Shown one piece after another: positions 5,333 to 14,594 of a DNA stretch of 32,000 nucleotides. The translations under genes and the position numbers were made by a program. Below the pieces are notes generated by a model. The model was not told the origin of the DNA and did not search any database. It worked only from the letters and a program-made list of their open reading frames with translations. Source of the DNA: Acaryochloris thomasi RCC1774 (GTDB taxonomy: Bacteria > Cyanobacteriota > Cyanobacteriia > Thermosynechococcales > Thermosynechococcaceae); NCBI RefSeq assembly GCF_003231495.1, contig NZ_PQWO01000022.1:1-32000 (forward strand). The letters are read 5' to 3'. Every line of letters starts with the position of its first letter. Position 1 is the first letter of the stretch.

Positions 5333-5673
5333 CAATCTTCTTCTCCTGATTCAGGCTGCGTACCAGTTACCTGTTGAGATGCGTGGCGGATGTGAAGAAT
5401 GCGAACAGCAGGCGTACTTTCGAGAACTGTGAAGATTACCCGATAGGAATTTCGACCTCGACCATAGAGCAATTGCCGAATCTCTTGACTGAAGTATTCG
5501 TTTTCTCGCGCTAACGGACATCGGTTAGGCATTGTTGATAGAGATTCGATAGCCTTGAGTAAGCCTGTATACCAACGTTTTGCGTTATCAGAGGAAGTGA
5601 ACTTAGAAATCTGGAGAAAAGCGTTATCGGCTTCGGCCTCTGCGATGCTGGAAAGTTCAATCTCGTAGTTCAT
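5332..5673 (-). CDS. Type II toxin, RelE/ParE superfamily
   Basis: 113 aa. The C-terminal SYRVIFTVLESTPAVRILHIRHASQ is the typical ParE/RelE beta-sheet signature. It shares a 4-nt ATGA overlap with the upstream small antitoxin gene. Confidence 0.8.
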   Translation of the reverse strand: MNYEIELSSIAEAEADNAFLQISKFTSSDNAKRWYTGLLKAIESLSTMPNRCPLARENEYFSQEIRQLLYGRGRNSYRVIFTVLESTPAVRILHIRHASQQVTGTQPESGEED

Positions 5674-5924: not shown

Positions 5925-6072
5925 AAGGACACACTATAGAATTGAAAGAATTAACGGTACAGCCTCATTCTAACAAGCTATAAAAACTTGATACGGCATT
6001 AGCAGGATAAGCATTCCTTTCGATCTCAGCATTGCTCAAAGAATATAACCGTAGATTCAAGAGAGCAAGCTT

Positions 6073-6218
6073 CCAAGCATTGATAGTGCAGTGGCAAAGG
6101 TATCTTTTAAGTGGTGGCTCTCACGCCAAGATTGATTTGGTATATTATCTAGGGCTTCACAAAAGCAAGCCCTAGAAATTTGACAGAAGCCATTTATACG
6201 AACGCGCCAAGATTGATT
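6073..6218 (+). promoter_or_regulatory. Leader/promoter region of the three-gene operon, with a thrice-repeated motif and a perfect hairpin
   Basis: CCAAGCATTGAT lies at 6073-6084. CGCCAAGATTGATT occurs at 6124-6137 and again at 6205-6218, where it ends 2 nt before the ATG. A perfect 9-bp inverted repeat CTAGGGCTT(6149-6157)/AAGCCCTAG(6167-6175) has a 9-nt loop. TATATTAT at 6141-6148 is a possible -10 element. Confidence 0.45.
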
Positions 6219-6219
6219 C

Positions 6220-7314
6220 ATGAAAATTGAAGATGTATTGAGTCAGTTTCGCGGCAGAGTCTCATGGCCGACAATGCGGGCCATTCTCAAAAAAATTGAC
6301 TTACAAACATCTCAAGGCTGGGACCAGACAATTGCGAAGCTAAAAGAATATCAAAAATCCAATAGAGATGAAGCCTTGATTGCAGTTGACAATTTAAAGC
6401 GCATCTATCTCAATTACTTGCTAGCTGGAGAAAAAGCAGTAAAGCTATTTACTGTAGAAGAAAGTAAACTTAATAGATTGATGGTATTTCTACAGAAACA
6501 TTCGGTTAAAGAGAACGTGTTTCAGGAGACGTATCCATTCCCGCTTTCAGAGGAAAAACTCAAAAATCTGAATTCATCCCCCAAGCTGCTTGAAGTTAGA
6601 GAGATAGATGGAGATTTAGGTCTTGTCTTCTGTACAAAACGCTTTTTTACAGAACGTTCGACAATCAACTCTAAAGACTACAGTATAGAGGTAGAAAAAG
6701 CTTTAGATGATTTTGATGAAATCGTTGGAATCAGGCGGTACACTAGACAGTTTTTTGATATTGTTTTCCTGAGAAAAGAAAGTAATATGGCTGAAATAAG
6801 AATTGATATTGGTGGGGGGATGCTAGAGGAAGATCGCAGAAGATCTTTCCTAGAGATCGGAAAAAGCTTCAACAAATTAGCTCATGACTACATAGGAGTT
6901 GCAGACTTTCTGAAAACACCTTTAAACTTCTTCCCATTAATTGAAACTTTATATAATTCAGATGAGGGGAAAGTAGGTGAGATAGCTTTCACAACGGATG
7001 AAGGATCGACAAAGTTTGAGAGGATGAGGCGTGGTGCAAAGGATTTAAGACTAGAGACATATCACAAAGCTGGGAGAGCCGAGCTAGAAAAGTTTGACCA
7101 GAAAATAAATTTATACAAGATTGCTATTTTGTGGAAATTTTCGATTTCTGATGATATTGAAACAGAACCAGAACTTTTTCTTCCTGGAAACTCTTTCTTC
7201 CTTAATCAAGAGTACCCAGTACTTGAAGAAGCTATAATAAAGAAGTGTAGTGAGCTGGAAGATTATAATTTTGTCTTTAACAAAATAAAGCATTACTTAG
7301 ATGGCTGTGGTTAG
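6220..7314 (+). CDS. Hypothetical protein A of the AT-rich three-gene operon (364 aa, no recognised catalytic motif)
   Basis: Long uninterrupted ORF in an AT-rich context, where random stops should be common. There is no Walker A or other motif I recognise. The N-terminal SWPTMRAILKKIDLQTSQGWDQTIAKLKEY loosely resembles a SAP/HeH motif. The 3' end overlaps the next ORF by 14 nt. Confidence 0.75.
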   Translation: MKIEDVLSQFRGRVSWPTMRAILKKIDLQTSQGWDQTIAKLKEYQKSNRDEALIAVDNLKRIYLNYLLAGEKAVKLFTVEESKLNRLMVFLQKHSVKENVFQETYPFPLSEEKLKNLNSSPKLLEVREIDGDLGLVFCTKRFFTERSTINSKDYSIEVEKALDDFDEIVGIRRYTRQFFDIVFLRKESNMAEIRIDIGGGMLEEDRRRSFLEIGKSFNKLAHDYIGVADFLKTPLNFFPLIETLYNSDEGKVGEIAFTTDEGSTKFERMRRGAKDLRLETYHKAGRAELEKFDQKINLYKIAILWKFSISDDIETEPELFLPGNSFFLNQEYPVLEEAIIKKCSELEDYNFVFNKIKHYLDGCG

Positions 7315-7714
7315 CAAGCAATTGCTTATTAGTAAAATTTTTCGAGATTGGGGTGACTCACCTCAGTCAGAAATCTGTATTTCTATTCTGGAATATCTAA
7401 TCAAAAACAGAAATAATGTATTGAGTCATATAACTTTTGGGAGTTTAAAGAATATTGCAAAAAATGATTTTTGCGCTGCAGAAATTTTAGAGGCAACTCA
7501 GTATCTGTGTGGAGAGCGAGTCAAGCTGCTGGAACAGAAATTTGAACTTATTCAAGATGGGGAAAATTTTGATTTATCTAATGATGAAGTAATGACTGCA
7601 AGAAAATCTGGAATCCTTATTCATCCTGAGACTGGCGAAGAAATTCATGATTTTGAAGATCAGGTTTTTATCTATTTCGTACCTAGTTTTCTGTCCAGCC
7701 GAGTAACAGTTTAG
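7301..7714 (+). CDS. Hypothetical protein B of the three-gene operon (137 aa)
   Basis: Its ATG lies inside the last codons of gene A. Its TAG stop is followed immediately by the ATG of gene C (TAGATG). No family recognised. Confidence 0.65.
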   Translation: MAVVSKQLLISKIFRDWGDSPQSEICISILEYLIKNRNNVLSHITFGSLKNIAKNDFCAAEILEATQYLCGERVKLLEQKFELIQDGENFDLSNDEVMTARKSGILIHPETGEEIHDFEDQVFIYFVPSFLSSRVTV

Positions 7715-8374
7715 ATGTCGTCTGAAGAACAGCTAAGCTTAAAAAAATTTGATTCTTTGGTATCTCAGAATCCAAGCTTAATGAGAATGCTGGAAAGGAT
7801 ATCAGTGTCTACCTATGAAGATTTTGTAGATTTACTTTATGATGATTTGGATTGGATAGTTCAACAAATCCAAAGAAATCCAGAGCTGCGGCAGGATGAT
7901 GGTGAAGATCGTTTAACGATAGAAATTGTTCTGCTTCTAAATACTCAAGGATATAAGGCTTCCCACGATACTAAGGTGGGTGGGCATGTCGATCTGCTAG
8001 TTGAGAAAGATCGATTTATGTGGATTGGAGAAGCAAAGGTGCATAGTGGGTATGACTATTTATGGGAAGGTTTTCTTCAGCTAGCTACAAGATATTCAAT
8101 CGGTAGCTCTAACCAAAGTCATGGTGGGATGCTGATCTATATCAGGCGTAGTAATACTCGAAACGTAATGGAAAAGTGGAGACAAACTCTATCTCAGAAA
8201 AGCCTAGAAGACTTCTCCTCAGAAGATTGTACAAGGAATTCGCTAGCCTTTTTCTCATCACATAAGCATGAAAGATCTGGCCTGCCTCTTCGAGTGAGGC
8301 ACATGCCAGTGATGCTCTATTTTGAGCCTAAAGACAAAAGTGCCAGAAAAAGACAAAAGAACGCTTCAGCTTGA
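7715..8374 (+). CDS. PD-(D/E)xK (restriction-endonuclease-fold) nuclease-like protein C of the three-gene operon (219 aa)
   Basis: The motif order is GEDRLTIEIV (helix with E64/E70), then GGHVDLLV (D93, codon 7991-7993), then WIGEAKVH (E106-x-K108, 8030-8038), then LQLATRY. The 13-residue D-to-ExK spacing is classic for the fold. The C-terminal tail is basic (KDKSARKRQK). Confidence 0.75.
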   Translation: MSSEEQLSLKKFDSLVSQNPSLMRMLERISVSTYEDFVDLLYDDLDWIVQQIQRNPELRQDDGEDRLTIEIVLLLNTQGYKASHDTKVGGHVDLLVEKDRFMWIGEAKVHSGYDYLWEGFLQLATRYSIGSSNQSHGGMLIYIRRSNTRNVMEKWRQTLSQKSLEDFSSEDCTRNSLAFFSSHKHERSGLPLRVRHMPVMLYFEPKDKSARKRQKNASA

Positions 8375-8441
8375 AGATAGCTCTGTCGTTCATCTCGCTA
8401 GTCAGTCCACGCTATCTGAGCAACAAAATCGAGTTTTTGAA

Positions 8442-8482
8442 GGTGCGATCGCACTTTGCACCTTAAGCACCACCACCTTGAT
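8442..8482. repeat. Copy A of a ~40-bp direct repeat flanking the Gp49/HTH toxin-antitoxin cassette
   Basis: GGTGCGATCGCACTTTG-caccttaag-CACCACCACCTTGAT here, against GGTGCGATCGCACTTTG-gccccagg-CACCACCACCTTGAT at 9287-9326. The 17-nt and 15-nt cores are identical. Confidence 0.8.
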
Positions 8483-8510
8483 AAGGCTATTGAGCGATCA
8501 AGGTGGTGGT
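8469..8510. terminator. Long perfect hairpin between convergent operons, a possible bidirectional terminator
   Basis: ACCACCACCTTGAT (8469-8482) and ATCAAGGTGGTGGT (8497-8510) form a 14-bp perfect stem with a 14-nt loop. It lies between the stop of gene C (8374) and the stop of the minus-strand antitoxin (8524). There is no clear U-tract. Confidence 0.45.
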
Positions 8511-8523
8511 ACGAGTGAGCGTT

Positions 8524-8856
8524 CTAACCAAAAGCAACCTGATGGTAAGGCTCACCCTGTTGATGAGGACTAATCTCAATCGTGATCTTGTGATCCAAGC
8601 ACTTCAAAAAGTCTACAAGTTTATCCATCGAGAAGCGGCTGAAATGACCATTCATCAGATGAGAGACCTCAGCCTGCTTAATACCTAGCAAGTCAGCAAT
8701 TTCACGCTGCTTCAGATTCCGGGCCTTGAGAATTTGCACAACATGAAATCCAAGCATCCCTCGGGCCTGCAGCTCTTCGGCATCCTCAAAGCCAAGATCT
8801 GCAAACACATTGCCGCTGCTTTCTTCAAATTCAATCTTTGCTTTGCCCTTGCTCAT
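8524..8856 (-). CDS. XRE-family helix-turn-helix antitoxin, partner of the Gp49/HigB-like toxin
   Basis: 110 aa. SSGNVFADLGF, then NLKQREIADLLGIKQAEVSHLMNG (HTH), then FSMDKLVDFL are typical of antitoxins encoded downstream of DUF891/Gp49-type toxins. Confidence 0.8.
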   Translation of the reverse strand: MSKGKAKIEFEESSGNVFADLGFEDAEELQARGMLGFHVVQILKARNLKQREIADLLGIKQAEVSHLMNGHFSRFSMDKLVDFLKCLDHKITIEISPHQQGEPYHQVAFG

Positions 8857-9185
8857 ACCTTGCTAGCTCCACGGCTTCCTTATAGCGCTGTTTGATCAAA
8901 GCAACATCTTTGGGAGGCGTTGCAATACCTTGCTTTGACTTCTTCTGAAAAGCATGAAGAATATAAATCTCCTTGCCAATCTGTACGGCCTGCACACAAC
9001 GATAGGCTTCCTTGTTGTGCTTCAGTGCAATCTCGATGACACCACTCCCTACACCCTTGAAAGGCTTGGCATCTTTGGGTATTTCCCCAAACAAGCTGTA
9101 GCTCATCACCGATTAGCTTCTGTACCGCTCTAGGGAACCTAAGAATGTTTTTCGTGGAGCTTCCCATCCAAACAATAGGTTTCAG
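8831..9185 (-). pseudogene. Gp49/HigB-like (RelE/ParE superfamily) toxin gene, frameshifted and lacking a canonical start
   Basis: The N-terminal half (L)KPIVWMGSSTKNILRFPRAVQKLIGDELQLVWG is in one frame (ORF 8880-9167). The C-terminal half GEIPKDAKPFKGVGSGVIEIALKHNKEAYRCVQ...IYILHAFQKKSKQGIATPPKDVALIKQRYKEA is in another (ORF 8831-9109). The switch falls near the homopolymer at about 9080-9095. CTG occupies the position of the expected Met (9185-9183). Confidence 0.75.
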
Positions 9186-9256
9186 CGTGGGTGGTTTGCG
9201 GATATGAATGTCCTCGTATAGCGAAATACTTAAATAGTAAATTTCCTATAAATATC

Positions 9257-9283
9257 ATTATAGAATCATTGGGTGTGCGTCAA
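9257..9283 (-). promoter_or_regulatory. Candidate sigma70-type promoter for the degraded toxin/antitoxin operon
   Basis: On the minus strand, TTGACG (9283-9278), a 15-nt spacer and TATAAT (9262-9257) lie about 70 nt upstream of the toxin N-terminus. Confidence 0.4.
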
Positions 9284-9286
9284 CAG

Positions 9287-9326
9287 GGTGCGATCGCACT
9301 TTGGCCCCAGGCACCACCACCTTGAT
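9287..9326. repeat. Copy B of the ~40-bp direct repeat flanking the toxin-antitoxin cassette
   Basis: See copy A (8442-8482). Copy B lacks the second hairpin arm. Confidence 0.8.
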
Positions 9327-9422
9327 TGGGCACAGAGGCCGTAGGTTTCTAGATAAATCTCTTAGAGAAATTTGTCTGTATAGGGTGGGTTGTGCATCAA
9401 CATCAGCGATAGTCCTCTCTTT

Positions 9423-9728
9423 CTACCCAGCGATCGCAAGTTGATCAAAATCAATCGCCTCGATCTCCTCGTGAGTGTCAGCCTGCGAAGCTAGCCACAG
9501 ATCACGATTCTTCTGCATTCCTAGCCAGGTTTCTGCACTCAGACCCACAGCTTTCTCTAATCGAAGGGCCATATCAGCAGATACTGCCGTTTGCTGCGAG
9601 ACCACACGGGCAACGGTCGAATGAGAAACCCCTAGGCGCTTCGCAAAATCACGAGCGCTCAGGCCATAAGGCTCCATGTAGAACTCTTGCAGGATTTCTC
9701 CTGGATGAGCTGGGTCATGCATTCTCAT
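9423..9728 (-). CDS. higA: HigA-family antitoxin (XRE HTH)
   Basis: 101 aa. HPGEILQEFYMEPYGLSARDFAKRLGVSHSTVARVVSQQTAVSADMALRLEKAVGLSAETWLGMQ is the canonical HigA/VapI pattern. Confidence 0.85.
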   Translation of the reverse strand: MRMHDPAHPGEILQEFYMEPYGLSARDFAKRLGVSHSTVARVVSQQTAVSADMALRLEKAVGLSAETWLGMQKNRDLWLASQADTHEEIEAIDFDQLAIAG

Positions 9729-9829
9729 TAGTGATAGTTCTCATAATCCAAAATGTAGACATCGCCGTCAATAAATTCAAACGTTAATCGCCAGTTACCA
9801 CTGACCCAAAATGAGCTGACGAGTCGACC
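9728..9829 (-). pseudogene. 3' remnant (about 33 codons) of a HigB toxin gene; the 5' part is missing
   Basis: Translation GRLVSSFWVSGNWRLTFEFIDGDVYILDYENYH* matches the conserved HigB C-terminus (..FWS..VSGNWRLIFRFEDGD..DV.LVDYH). Its TAA overlaps the higA ATG (TAATG). Upstream sequence in this frame loses similarity and hits a stop. The region is overlapped out of frame by the LuxR ORF tail. Confidence 0.7.
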
Positions 9830-10512
9830 TGCCGTTGATCTGTCGCAAGTTGTACAACCATTTCTGTTCGCGAAGAAACGTCGAGCTTACGGAACATCCT
9901 TTTGAGTGCCTTTTTAACAGTATTTTCAGTAATCCAAAGTTCAGCGCCCACCTCCGCATTCGTTCGGCCCGACGCAACTAAATCTGCGATCTGTAGCTCA
10001 CGAGAAGTAAGGTGATTGCGCTTCAAAGACAGACCATTTTGCTTAGCTGTCCGTTTGCTCGTTGTCCAAACAGATAAATGTAAACAAACAGCGCTCACGT
10101 CCGCTAGGTCTTGTGCATCAAAAGCAGGCATCGACTTTTCTCGGGTACAGCCCACCACGCCGACCAGTTGCCCCTCGCTGACAATCGGGCCTGCCATCAC
10201 ATGCCAGTGATCGGGGCGAGGACAAATCAGCCGCCAAGCCTTGGGTGAAGTGACGAGTGCCTCATGGGCCGGGGCATGGCGCTCTACTAAGTAGCGAGCG
10301 ATAGGATTGCGTTCAACCGATAGCGCAACGTCTGCAATCTTTTTGAGGTTTTTGTTGCTGCTGCTAGCTGAGAGGATTTGATCAAAGAAGAATATTCCCG
10401 AGCGCTGGGCTGCAAAGTACTCGGCCAGTTTGGGAACGAGTTGCGATCGCAACTCGTACTCGTGCTCAACATGATTAATCGCCTGAAATAGGCTTTGTAA
10501 TGTGCTGTTCAT
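9784..10512 (-). CDS. LuxR-family transcriptional regulator (C-terminal HTH; N-terminal sensory domain unassigned)
   Basis: LTSRELQIADLVASGRTNAEVGAELWITENTVKKALKRMFRKLDVSSRTEM is a LuxR/FixJ-type HTH. The last ~19 residues extend into higB-derived DNA. Confidence 0.8.
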   Translation of the reverse strand: MNSTLQSLFQAINHVEHEYELRSQLVPKLAEYFAAQRSGIFFFDQILSASSSNKNLKKIADVALSVERNPIARYLVERHAPAHEALVTSPKAWRLICPRPDHWHVMAGPIVSEGQLVGVVGCTREKSMPAFDAQDLADVSAVCLHLSVWTTSKRTAKQNGLSLKRNHLTSRELQIADLVASGRTNAEVGAELWITENTVKKALKRMFRKLDVSSRTEMVVQLATDQRQVDSSAHFGSVVTGD

Positions 10513-10634: not shown

Positions 10635-11306
10635 ATGAATGATTCACAAAAGCACATCATCGGTTTAGTCTTTTATCCGGGGATGACAGCCCTCGACGTG
10701 ATTGGCCCGCAAACCGTATTCACTGGGTTGCCGGGAGTCCAGGTTCATCGCATCTGGAAAACGTTGGACCCTATCTCGACAGATGATGGGATGGTGATTG
10801 TGCCAGACACGACCTTTGCAGATTGTCCGGCTTTGGATGTTGTTTGTATCGGAGGCGGACGTGGGCAGGGCGCAGTGACAGACGATCCAGAATTGCTCAA
10901 TTTTCTTCAACAACAGGGACGGACTGCCAAGTTCGTTACCTCTGTGTGCGGCGGGTCTGAGTTTTTGGCGAAGGCAGGACTGCTGCAAGGCTATCGCGCA
11001 GCAACACACTGGGCAGCACGGGAACAGCTTGCAGGCTTAGGCATTGACGTTGGAACTGAGCGCGTCGTCATTGATCGCAATCGCATGACAGGGGGCGGCG
11101 TCACAGCAGGCATTGATTTTGGTCTGGTGGTCGCATCAAAACTATGTGGAGAGGAAGCAGCCAAAATTGCTCAACTCATGATGGAGTATGATCCGGCCCC
11201 TCCCTTCGACGCGGGTTCTCCAGAGAAAGCAGGTACAGAGCTGGTTGAGAAAGCAATGGCACAAGTAGCTGGCGTTTTCAATCCCCCCATCAAGCAGGGA
11301 GTATGA
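10635..11306 (+). CDS. DJ-1/PfpI family protein (class I glutamine amidotransferase-like fold)
   Basis: The nucleophile-elbow motif is VTSVCGGSEFLAKAGLLQGYRAATHW. I prefer the ATG at 10635, preceded by GGAG, over the tracked TTG at 10617. Confidence 0.8.
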   Translation: MNDSQKHIIGLVFYPGMTALDVIGPQTVFTGLPGVQVHRIWKTLDPISTDDGMVIVPDTTFADCPALDVVCIGGGRGQGAVTDDPELLNFLQQQGRTAKFVTSVCGGSEFLAKAGLLQGYRAATHWAAREQLAGLGIDVGTERVVIDRNRMTGGGVTAGIDFGLVVASKLCGEEAAKIAQLMMEYDPAPPFDAGSPEKAGTELVEKAMAQVAGVFNPPIKQGV

Positions 11307-11307
11307 A

Positions 11308-11736
11308 ATGACCATCAATCTAGACGTTGAACGCGATAATACTTACGCCAAAAATTGGGTAAATATCGGCTTTTATGCGGTTTCGATTCTCTTTAACGTC
11401 TGCCTGATGGCTCAGGTATTAACGGTCGGCGTTGCCTACTTCTCCGATCCTGCTTGGTGGACTGTTCATAAGTGGCTCGTGCGGGGCTACGGCGGATTGT
11501 CATTGGTCTTACTGGGAGGAGCGTTCATGACGCCATCTTCAGCCAGGATTCGATCGCTTGCCGCCAGCCTACCCGTGCTGATGGGATTCCAGTTTTTCAG
11601 TCTCCATGTCAAGACTCCGCTGCATTTAGAGATCTTCCATCCTCTGATTGGATTTGCGTTGTTCTATGTTTCCTCAAGTCTTGTACACAATGTATCGCGT
11701 CGCTTATTTCCGACTGGCAATCCAAGCGTGCATTAG
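11308..11736 (+). CDS. Hypothetical integral membrane protein
   Basis: 142 aa with about four hydrophobic segments. It starts 2 nt after the DJ-1 stop, so the two are probably co-transcribed. Confidence 0.6.
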   Translation: MTINLDVERDNTYAKNWVNIGFYAVSILFNVCLMAQVLTVGVAYFSDPAWWTVHKWLVRGYGGLSLVLLGGAFMTPSSARIRSLAASLPVLMGFQFFSLHVKTPLHLEIFHPLIGFALFYVSSSLVHNVSRRLFPTGNPSVH

Positions 11737-11757
11737 CGATGAAACAATCGCTTTCAC

Positions 11758-12459
11758 TCAGATTGCTCGTTGAGCATACCAAGCATAAATATGGAGAGCT
11801 TGAAAAAATAAAATCGGCGTGTTGAAGCCATTGGACATCATGGTTGACTCAATTTCTGGGAGCGGTCGGAGCGCGACCTCTTGGCGGTAAAGCGTAGGAA
11901 GCTGTTCAATTTGTTCGATAGGCATCCCAGAAAACTTCAGCAGTCGGAGCCACGTTTCAAGTAGCTGATCGTACTGGACCGTAGACTGATCGGATGCAAG
12001 GGTAGCGTTAACGAAGTATCCACCTGGACGCAGCCGTGAGGCAATCTGACCAAAGAAACGACTAATGTCCTCTTGCAGCAGTAGAAAGTGGGAAACGAAC
12101 AGGCAAGTTGCCGCATCGAATAAATCCATTGGGGGTAAAGAATCAAGATAGCCTTCGTGAAACGTGATGCGGGAGGCGATGTCGCTTTCTTCAGCTTTTT
12201 GCCTGCAAATCTCTAACATGGGGGCCGCAGGTTCTACTGCTGTAAACTGCCACTGCGGAAAGGCTTGAGCAAGAGAGAGCAGCTCTAACCCTGTCCCTGC
12301 ACCCACACAGAGAATTCTGGCATCAGCAGGCAGCCCAGCAAGTACGGCGTGCATGAGAAAGTGCAGTGTTTCGTGAATAGGGGCGAATTTAGCATTCCCC
12401 TGATCGTAGGAAGCAGCGCGTTCTTGATCGAAAACAATCGATGTCTTTTGATTTTGCAT
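11758..12459 (-). CDS. Class I SAM-dependent methyltransferase
   Basis: Motif I is ILCVGAGTGLELL, followed by an acidic residue (AVEP) and motif-II-like DAATCLFV. Confidence 0.8.
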   Translation of the reverse strand: MQNQKTSIVFDQERAASYDQGNAKFAPIHETLHFLMHAVLAGLPADARILCVGAGTGLELLSLAQAFPQWQFTAVEPAAPMLEICRQKAEESDIASRITFHEGYLDSLPPMDLFDAATCLFVSHFLLLQEDISRFFGQIASRLRPGGYFVNATLASDQSTVQYDQLLETWLRLLKFSGMPIEQIEQLPTLYRQEVALRPLPEIESTMMSNGFNTPILFFQALHIYAWYAQRAI

Positions 12460-13709: not shown

Positions 13710-14594
13710 CTATAAATCCGATGCAGCCTTTACCTTATCCTGTGTGCGAGTTTCAAAGTCTTCGGCATCATGGCGCTCATGTAACTGTTCTTCCAAAGCG
13801 CCCCAGGTGCGGTTGACCATGCGCCCCCGCTTCACGGCTGGGCGTTCTGCTATTTCTTCGGCCCAACGAACCACATGGGTGTAAGACGAGGCATCAAGAA
13901 ATTCCGCTGCGCTGTACAGGACATTGCGAACAACGCCGCCATACCAAGGCCAGATTGCAATATCGGCAATCGTGTATTGATCACCCGCCATAAATTGATG
14001 CGTTTCTAAATGCCGATTCATCACGTCAAGCTGGCGTTTCGTCTCCATTGTGAAACGGTCGATGCAATATTCAATTTTGGTCGGTGCATAGCTGTAGAAG
14101 TGACCAAACCCGCCGCCCAAATAGGGGGCTGAACCCATTTGCCAGAACAACCACGACAAACATTCCGTCCGGGTTTGATGATCTGTGGGGATGAGCTGAC
14201 CAAATTTTTCAGCTAAGTAGAGCAGGATGGAACCCGATTCAAACACACGCGTCGGTGTAGGGGTTGATTGATCCAACAGTGCCGGGATTTTTGAATTGGG
14301 ATTGACCTCAACGAAACCGCTGCCGAACTGATCGCCGTCGCCAATTTTAATTAGATAGGCGTCGTATTCGGCCCCCGTCTCACCCAACGCCAATAGCTCT
14401 TCCAGCATGATCGTGACTTTTTGACCGTTGGGGGTTGCCATCGAATAGAGCTGCAGGGGATGTTTTCCCACCGGTAAGTCTTTGTCATGGGTTGGCCCCG
14501 CAATGGGGCGATTGATGCTGGCCCACGCTCCACCATTTTCAGCGTTCCACTGCCAAACTTTGGGCGGTGTGTAGTTGTCTTGACTGCTCATCAT
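13710..14594 (-). CDS. yghU: Nu-class glutathione S-transferase, YghU-like
   Basis: Near-collinear similarity to E. coli YghU as I remember it: PPKVWQW...INRPIAGPTHDKDLPVGKHPLQLYSMATPNGQKVTIMLEELLALG...GDGDQFGSGFVEVNPNSKIPAL...FESGSILLYLAEKFG...GGGFGHFYSYAP.KIEY.I.RF. Confidence 0.85.
   Translation of the reverse strand: MMSSQDNYTPPKVWQWNAENGGAWASINRPIAGPTHDKDLPVGKHPLQLYSMATPNGQKVTIMLEELLALGETGAEYDAYLIKIGDGDQFGSGFVEVNPNSKIPALLDQSTPTPTRVFESGSILLYLAEKFGQLIPTDHQTRTECLSWLFWQMGSAPYLGGGFGHFYSYAPTKIEYCIDRFTMETKRQLDVMNRHLETHQFMAGDQYTIADIAIWPWYGGVVRNVLYSAAEFLDASSYTHVVRWAEEIAERPAVKRGRMVNRTWGALEEQLHERHDAEDFETRTQDKVKAASDL

Follow-up and report, generated by a model that had tools for sequence, protein, structure and literature searches.

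RdgC is a ring-shaped DNA-binding protein associated with recombination, and in Escherichia coli it is encoded by a solitary housekeeping gene. RexA, the sensor half of the two-part, prophage-borne RexAB phage-exclusion system of lambda, is reported to share one fold with RdgC and with the kinetochore proteins Iml3 and Chl4, and RexA and RdgC are both reported to bind DNA non-specifically (PMC11077077). The other half, RexB, is a polytopic membrane channel. Effectors of the PD-(D/E)xK nuclease fold are used by a further set of described systems, among them Shedu, Hachiman (HamA), Lamassu, Gabija and type II and type IV restriction. Finally, Rst_3HP ('hp + hp + hp', Rousset et al. 2022) is a validated cassette of three proteins without predicted domains that occupies the hotspot between the genes gpA and gpQ of P2-like phages. 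Here we analyze three adjacent genes, A, B and C, of the cyanobacterium Acaryochloris thomasi RCC1774, which lie in a window of 32,000 nt (the whole stretch of DNA that was analyzed; positions 1 to 32,000 of the forward strand of contig NZ_PQWO01000022.1, assembly GCF_003231495.1). An original prediction, made from the letters of this window, had read them as an undescribed defence-type cassette with a nuclease as its third product. We find that the trio is a conserved and mobile unit, and we consider a role in defence against phages or other mobile elements (superinfection exclusion) to be the probable one.

Like RexAB, the trio is carried by prophages, and protein A is predicted to have a fold that resembles the RdgC-type fold of RexA; the proposed logic, in which a DNA-associated sensor triggers an effector, would also be the same. 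The two differ in their effectors, as the trio has no membrane partner and encodes a soluble predicted nuclease (C) in place of the RexB channel, and in the presence of an extra small acidic protein (B). Because it has neither a membrane partner nor a sequence link to RexAB, the trio is not a Rex system by membership, and the connection between A and RexA runs solely via the common RdgC-like fold. A is similar in size to RdgC and aligns with it over the full length (approximately 320–360 columns), but it has an additional N-terminal helical region and is encoded in an operon with a nuclease gene. C has its nuclease fold and motif in common with the PD-(D/E)xK effectors of the named systems. 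Unlike those systems, however, the trio has no ATPase, helicase, methyltransferase or SMC partner, and none of them pairs its nuclease with RdgC-like and small acidic partners. Rst_3HP occupies the same P2-like hotspot as the trio does in Klebsiella phage KP12, but its proteins are of 333, 359 and 227 aa, compared with 364, 137 and 219 aa here. Identity with the Rst_3HP cassette (pFR109) was rejected, as hhalign probabilities are 0.1–0.6% in all nine protein pairs and hmmsearch gave less than 1 bit in most comparisons and never more than 8 bits.

The claim that the trio fits no named system is supported by this comparison and by database scans. Pfam, NCBIfam (June 2026) and PADLOC-DB v2.0.0 contain no model for A, B or C. 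The scans were extended to 78 divergent members of the A family and to copies from enterobacteria and Vibrio, and the PADLOC-DB systems compared included Shedu, Hachiman, Gabija, Lamassu, Kiwa, restriction-modification, PD-T4/T7/Lambda, Rst and the PDC candidates. The systems reported from the P4 hotspot (Crouga, Bandua, Aernus, Toga, Reve and Hailong; PMC13586616) were also considered and set aside, as their compositions differ from that of the trio.

The term 'undescribed' nevertheless needs qualifying. The trio is unnamed, and literature searches with fold names, PHROG identifiers and GenBank/RefSeq accessions returned no description of it, but all three proteins belong to PHROG families without assigned function (A, phrog_12777, 6e-68; B, phrog_11490, 1e-24; C, phrog_9664, 7e-72) and one member has been flagged computationally. 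This is the E. coli homologue of B, WP_001041173.1, which appears in Table S10 of DefensePredictor, a published machine-learning screen, with a mean log-odds of 6.28 (strict cutoff 4) and is labelled 'Putative novel defense gene', without a defence homologue. The DefensePredictor supplements examined contain no peptide strings from the E. coli trio and so give no sign that it was cloned. The E. coli copies are named "hypothetical protein" in RefSeq, and cluster names are likewise uninformative nearly throughout, with one stray 'PTS sugar transporter'.

A conserved three-gene unit

The three genes lie on the plus strand of the window, with A at 6220–7314 (an open reading frame, ORF, of 364 aa), B at 7301–7714 (137 aa) and C at 7715–8374 (219 aa). 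They correspond to C1752_08257 to C1752_08259 in the annotation of A. thomasi RCC1774, all "hypothetical". The coupling described in the original prediction is confirmed by the sequence: A and B overlap by 14 nt, and the stop codon of B (TAG, 7712–7714) abuts the ATG of C at 7715, giving TAGATG. In the window, B and C also share one reading frame, with the single TAG between them. Readthrough into a B–C fusion was considered as a general design and rejected, since other loci have spacers of 2–15 nt or overlaps, and other frames; the shared frame looks incidental.

Homologues of the three genes co-occur, and they do so in strict synteny. The order A-B-C is kept in every complete locus examined, approximately 60 in total, from Cyanobacteria, Proteobacteria and several types of phage, and the A/B and B/C junctions are tight or overlapping across loci. 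In all 15 loci in GTDB genomes that were retrieved via A, the A gene is directly followed by a homologue of B and this by one of C; the exceptions to an intact C are L001, where the contig end cuts the gene, and L013, where insertions interrupt it. The same order, with proteins of about 350, 130 and 215 aa, is found in all five trio-bearing phage and prophage loci from the phage and E. coli collections and in 37 of 37 non-truncated viral contigs from IMG/VR, which were retrieved through C. It is also found with distant homologues of A (approximately 25–31% identity) on non-cyanobacterial contigs. One divergent proteobacterial trio (L026; 401, 129 and 220 aa) was recognized solely by profile comparison, with probabilities of 99.85% for A and 96.7% for B.

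The three proteins also share their evolutionary history. When pairwise identities across 21 loci are compared as matrices between A, B and C, the correlations are r = 0.94–0.96, and none of 2000 permutations gave a value as high. In six pairs of syntenic copies, the ratio of nonsynonymous to synonymous substitution rates (dN/dS) is 0.08–0.38 for A, B and C (0.15–0.32 for B), which indicates purifying selection. We conclude that the trio is a real unit, inherited and selected together. The opposite view, that the three ORFs are chance neighbours or decaying remnants that form no functional unit, has nothing in its favour beyond the absent annotation, all public sources listing the proteins as "hypothetical". 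It is effectively refuted by the strict synteny over some 60 loci, by the purifying selection on all three genes and by the confident structural models of A and C described below.

A is the largest of the three proteins, is well conserved and is never lost across the loci examined. An exhaustive profile search returned 728 representatives of its family at 50% identity, 446 of them with E ≤ 1e-30; nearly all of the proteins are 340–400 aa long and are matched over their whole length. A word-indexed search yielded 78 homologues of A, 40 of C and 3 of B, the low number for B being a limit of that search. C was found without A and B in one other architecture only, a HEAT-repeat fusion that follows a NACHT gene in Coleofasciculus. 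There, the gene for the HEAT and C-type nuclease regions (L024, 7246–8858; also L025) begins inside the 3' end of the NACHT gene, out of frame, and the pair may represent a frameshifted NACHT-HEAT-nuclease protein resembling nucleotide-binding leucine-rich-repeat (NLR) receptors. The protein P0099, of 369 aa, is a fusion of HEAT repeats and C.

In Pseudanabaena sp. Salubria-1 (L013), C is split into three pieces by insertions resembling insertion sequences (IS), and A and B are intact. The regions concerned are 7767–9048, 9238–10002 and 10693–11779, and each insertion bears a transposase-sized ORF; one has terminal inverted repeats of 37 nt and another has perfect inverted repeats of 25 nt. 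The disruption of C alone is a single anecdote, which fits the idea that C is the costly component.

Predicted folds and conserved motifs

Of the claims in the original prediction, the absence of a recognizable fold in A is the one that is not borne out. The AlphaFold2 model of A is confident (predicted local distance difference test, pLDDT, 92.3; predicted template modelling score, pTM, 0.89) and shows a soluble protein with an RdgC/RexA-like fold, in which beta-rich domains come after a four-helix region at the N-terminus. In a Foldseek search of the PDB, the best and sole significant match is E. coli RdgC (2owl; E 8.6e-5, probability 1.0). Lambda RexA and CENP-N, the human counterpart of Chl4, come further down in this list. 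A second, independent library, of viral structures, gave five RdgC-like matches with probabilities of at least 0.99, including proteins named 'Recombination associated protein' and 'Exonuclease', and here too no other match was significant. At the level of sequence, A has no match in Pfam at E ≤ 1, and the RdgC model is matched by none of 78 diverse members of the A family. The hhalign probability of A against the RexA-like protein of PMC9122126 is 7%, and sequence-profile searches of A, B and C against the PDB returned nothing significant.

A basic motif is conserved throughout the A family, K-M-R-R followed by D-L-R-x-E-x-Y-H-x-x-G (R270, R277, H282 and G285), as are D196 and Y245. The motif would fit a phosphate or DNA contact. 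None of the three proteins has an apolar run of 8 or more residues or any hydrophobic segment.

Based on its predicted fold and invariant motif, C is a PD-(D/E)xK nuclease, as the original prediction had proposed. Its AlphaFold2 model (pLDDT 90; pTM 0.84) has a core in the order alpha-beta-beta-beta-alpha-beta, formed by helix 64–77, strands 81–83, 94–98 and 101–109, helix 113–127 and strand 136–143. The residues D93, E106 and K108, together with E64/D65 and Q122/R126/Y127, are invariant in 30 homologues. In the model, E64/D65 start the first helix of the core, D93 lies just before the second strand, E106-x-K108 is in the third strand, and Q122/R126/Y127 are on the next helix. A helical N-terminal region precedes the nuclease core, and the protein ends in a conserved basic tail (P205-x-D207-K208-S209).

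The top Foldseek match of C is AF1548 (probability 0.97, E 0.018), and many of the other, individually weak matches are likewise PD-(D/E)xK nucleases, namely cap-snatching endonucleases, Cdn1, Bax1, R.BspD6I, Can2, AddAB and DdmD. As no single E-value is below 1e-3, the fold assignment rests on the consistency of these matches and on the motif. The PADLOC candidate PDC-S54 weakly matches 8 of 30 C members and two enterobacterial and Vibrio copies (best E 1e-4), and single C members weakly match REase_II, HamA and HEAT_CxxC_PDDEXK.

B is small, soluble and acidic, with an isoelectric point of 4.8 in the window and of 4.2–4.8 in other copies. Every locus examined has its gene flanked by A and C, and 20 of its sequences could be aligned. 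No family match is reproducible across these 20 homologues. A match to WH_III-A in PADLOC (E 7e-4) and one to MotA_activ were dismissed as chance, each being found in just one of the 20.

Phage, plasmid and chromosomal settings

In Klebsiella phage KP12, which is P2-like, the slot that holds the trio is bounded by the replication gene gpA on one side and by the portal gene gpQ on the other. This slot is a hotspot of anti-phage systems and holds old and tin in P2 (PMC9122126). Two phages whose gpA is 98% identical to that of KP12 have other cargo in the slot: 4LV2017 carries genes for a hypothetical protein and a reverse transcriptase, and vB_EcoM-813R9 carries a gene for a Hypoth_Ymh-domain protein. 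Such an exchange of gpA-gpQ cargo among near-identical phages is how defence cargo has been described to behave. In 19% of P2 elements, the main defence loci hold nothing but unknown genes, and in the hotspot of P4 satellites six of eight randomly chosen loci with unknown genes proved to be defensive (PMC13586616). P2-like carriers of the trio include phages of Klebsiella and of E. coli.

The database record of KP12 (L028; OM835953.1) carries the labels Vequintavirinae and 'clone KP12_3, partial sequence'. The genes run in a P2-like (Peduoviridae) order, with cI, a cox-like gene and gpA, then gpQ-P and O-N-M-L, and gpA shares 31% identity with its P2 counterpart. The record is probably a co-purified prophage with mislabelled taxonomy.

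A second recurrent position is beside the gene Q of lambdoid phages. Seven Stx1a-converting phages have the trio between Q and stx1A, on the strand opposite to both, and the distance from the start of the trio to stx1A is 575 nt (L027, 12479–16108; L039). A lambdoid prophage of an avian pathogenic E. coli (APEC) strain also has the trio beside Q; the part of this prophage that was analyzed holds no stx genes. In 13 of 39 IMG/VR contigs, the trio lies 19–49 nt from a lambdoid Q, tail to tail and on the opposite strand; in five of these 13, Q is only 65–90% identical to the probe. The other flank of the Q-adjacent trio varies and may be stx1A, a methyltransferase gene or an endolysin gene.

These positions bear on whether the trio could be an accessory of recombination, replication or repair, with A as an RdgC-like modulator of RecA/DNA transactions and C as a nuclease, both serving the element itself. 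The best structural matches of A, namely RdgC and phage proteins called 'recombination associated protein' and 'exonuclease', would agree with such a role, the recombination modules of phages often include PD-(D/E)xK nucleases, and one locus (L019) has YqaJ and DUF932 genes close by. In the Stx/lambdoid and P2-like phages, however, the trio occupies variable cargo slots outside the replication and recombination operon, on the strand opposite to Q in the lambdoid case, and it is absent from phages with 98% identical replication genes. The variable slots and this absence argue most strongly against a phage housekeeping role. Many chromosomal copies have no phage genes nearby, and A has no sequence relationship to RdgC. 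We therefore regard an accessory function of this kind as very improbable.

Other elements carry the trio as well. In a 14.8-kb PM2-like Vibrio prophage (L029) it abuts the integrase gene, and a gene for a MazF/PemK-like toxin (14076–14495) lies at the opposite end, so that both termini of this small virus hold accessory conflict genes. In two further viral contigs the trio adjoins a P2-type integrase gene. Moraxella phage Mcat13 (KR093637.1; L030, 7938–10065) has a complete trio of 352, 153 and 210 aa that is unannotated in GenBank. Homologues of A are also encoded on plasmids of Calothrix PCC 7716 and Pseudomonas HS-18. Among chromosomal cyanobacterial copies, one is inside an element with integrase, IS and NACHT genes, and the neighbours differ at each locus, which indicates that the cassette moves independently. 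In the window, the GC content over 6.5–8.0 kb is 0.357, compared with approximately 0.50 in both flanks. The suggestion of horizontal acquisition made from composition is thus upheld by the phage and plasmid carriers: judged from these settings, the trio is a self-contained, horizontally mobile cassette of temperate phages, plasmids and chromosomal islets.

The plasmid-borne copies raise the possibility of a conflict system that is not directed at phages, for example plasmid elimination, a methylase-less (type IV-like) restriction, or counter-defence cargo that prophages direct at host or rival systems. A DNA-clamp-like protein with a nuclease would recall systems that act on the topology or ends of foreign DNA, and the cassette has no methyltransferase according to the Pfam, PADLOC and NCBIfam scans. 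Nevertheless, the data give no specific pointer to plasmids or to modified DNA, none of the proteins matches an anti-defence family, and the strongest signal from context comes from hotspots known for anti-phage cargo. We consider these variants quite improbable.

Members of the A family are found in Cyanobacteria and Proteobacteria, with single homologues in metagenome bins of Desulfobacterales and Thiodiazotropha. Of 5426 complete genomes of E. coli, 23 carry the version of the Stx phages, and the enterobacterial trio is present in at least 1000 contigs for the Stx-phage type and in roughly 300–700 for the KP12 type. Toxin–antitoxin (TA) modules or NACHT, HNH or AAA genes are found near some loci and housekeeping genes are the neighbours at others. 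The divergent proteobacterial trio L026 is directly followed by a gene of the H-NS family on the opposite strand (8703–9050). An RHS toxin locus and an RRXRR/HNH gene are also close by, and such surroundings are typical of foreign DNA and conflict systems.

In the window itself, A is preceded by a leader (5925–6219, plus strand) that we read as a putative regulatory region. Within it, the 14-nt sequence CGCCAAGATTGATT is present twice as a perfect direct repeat (6124–6137 and 6205–6218), and the second copy stops one base short of the start codon of A. A stem-loop with a 9-bp stem, CTAGGGCTT...AAGCCCTAG, lies at approximately 6150–6176 between the two copies. The repeats and the stem-loop may be operator or regulatory elements. 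A scan for the sigma-70 consensus found no plus-strand promoter within the leader.

Downstream, two adjacent stem-loops (8440–8512, plus-strand coordinates) occupy the space between C and the convergent, minus-strand gene of an HTH_37 antitoxin, and may act as a bidirectional terminator. The strong hairpin that had been noted after C is indeed present, as a perfect 14-bp stem with arms at 8469–8482 and 8497–8510; the folding energy of the region is -59.9 kcal/mol (z = -5.6 compared with shuffled sequences), and the hairpin (8469–8510) has no T-run. Its assignment to the trio is less secure. A direct repeat of approximately 46 nt (GGTGCGATCGCACTTTG..GCACCACCACCTTGAT..GGC, with a GCGATCGC palindrome inside) has copies at 8442–8487 and 9287–9331, which bracket a minus-strand pair of genes for a Gp49/HigB-like toxin and the HTH_37 antitoxin (8527–9109). 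This arrangement suggests that the toxin and antitoxin genes came in together, as an inserted cassette. The first copy, which alone extends into the long hairpin, forms its left half. Since this half belongs to the repeat that flanks the neighbouring TA cassette, the hairpin is not clearly the trio's own terminator, and its reading as a dedicated operon terminator is weakened. The other minus-strand neighbours are a gene for a ParE toxin (5335–5673), with a gene for a small partner upstream of it, and a lone HTH_3 protein gene (9426–9728).

An environment of TA modules, as noted in the original prediction, is therefore real in the window but specific to it and not a general property of the family. 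It is one of the observations that would agree with an addiction or TA-type module, in which C would be a nuclease toxin, the acidic B its antitoxin and A a regulator or accessory protein. Such a module would stabilize the carrier element, as loss of the cassette would kill the cell, and protection from phages would be secondary. B is small and acidic, is encoded immediately upstream of the nuclease and is translationally coupled to it. In addition to the window copy, the trio of L016 adjoins classical TA modules, and the disruption of C with A and B intact in L013 is what is expected if C is costly. The size, conservation and constant presence of A are, however, unusual for a two-part TA system. 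B has no match to a DNA-binding or known antitoxin family in its 20 homologues, and the cassette is exchanged in phage hotspots in the manner of defence cargo. We consider an addiction module unlikely. It also overlaps with a defensive role, since many TA systems act as abortive-infection defences.

Proposed role of the trio

Taken together, the synteny and co-evolution of the three genes, the nuclease fold of C, the placement in phage hotspots and the DefensePredictor score of the B homologue support the original reading of a defence-type cassette. The fusion of the C domain to HEAT repeats after a NACHT gene, the weak resemblance of C to PDC-S54 and, for the window copy, the low GC content and the TA neighbours also speak for it. 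From these genomic data, defence against phages or other mobile elements, in the sense of superinfection exclusion, is probably the function of the trio.

Several observations weigh against this. No phage-protection phenotype for any member was found in the searchable literature, and the DefensePredictor supplement examined contains B only, as a prediction. Phage copies occupy cargo and hotspot slots, and the picture for defence genes near chromosomal copies is mixed: the neighbours of the chromosomal cyanobacterial copies are mostly ordinary housekeeping genes, and when 145 neighbouring ORFs were scanned with PADLOC, generic Ser/Thr-kinase matches dominated and no clear defence-island signal emerged. 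The kinase models hit neighbours that are orthologous to one another, in Calothrix and Rivularia genomes that are related. The structural resemblance of A to RdgC also has its limits. Over approximately 359 aligned columns with 2owl, the template modelling (TM) score is only 0.35–0.41 and the root-mean-square deviation is about 11 Å, which is consistent with differing domain orientations without proving them, and hhalign gives a probability of 0.5% when the profile of A is compared with E. coli RdgC, so that the resemblance is at the level of the fold only. For these reasons we speak of an RdgC/RexA-like fold in A and do not assign the protein to the RdgC family. The match to lambda RexA (8twq) is weak, at rank 36 of the PDB list (E 0.68, probability 0.10). 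Finally, as B has no assignable fold, any role given to it is a guess.

In a possible mechanism, A, probably as a dimer, would bind DNA or a DNA structure that arises during phage replication or recombination, and would act as a sensor or scaffold. The acidic B could bridge A to C, or keep C inactive. Sensing would then release or activate C, which would cut the DNA of the invader or, in abortive infection, that of the host. The logic would be like that of Rex, with a soluble nuclease replacing the RexB membrane channel. Our confidence in these specific roles of sensor, adaptor and effector is considerably lower than in defence as such.

A more far-reaching form of the proposal is that the trio founds a Rex-like class of immunity, in which a clamp of the RdgC/RexA fold licenses a PD-(D/E)xK nuclease via an acidic partner. 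In this case, the clamp A would recognize intermediates of replication or recombination, or free ends, made by the phage. We offer this as a tentative idea that is more doubtful than not. If it were true, the A proteins would be a soluble and tractable model for what RexA-type sensors detect, a question that to our knowledge has been open since the classic rII/Rex work, and the trio would be a widespread prophage weapon located beside the stx genes of pathogenic E. coli.

The families PHROG 12777, 11490 and 9664, and three families named 'hypothetical protein' in RefSeq, could be annotated as one system, which would close an annotation gap. If a nuclease works together with an RdgC/RexA-like fold, the Rex paradigm would be widened, and its sensing step could be approached in a soluble system. 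As the trio resides on medically relevant prophages (Stx1a-converting and P2-like), it could shape superinfection and competition among prophages, with relevance to phage therapy. If it is defensive, the trio adds an unnamed system to the immune repertoire of bacteria.

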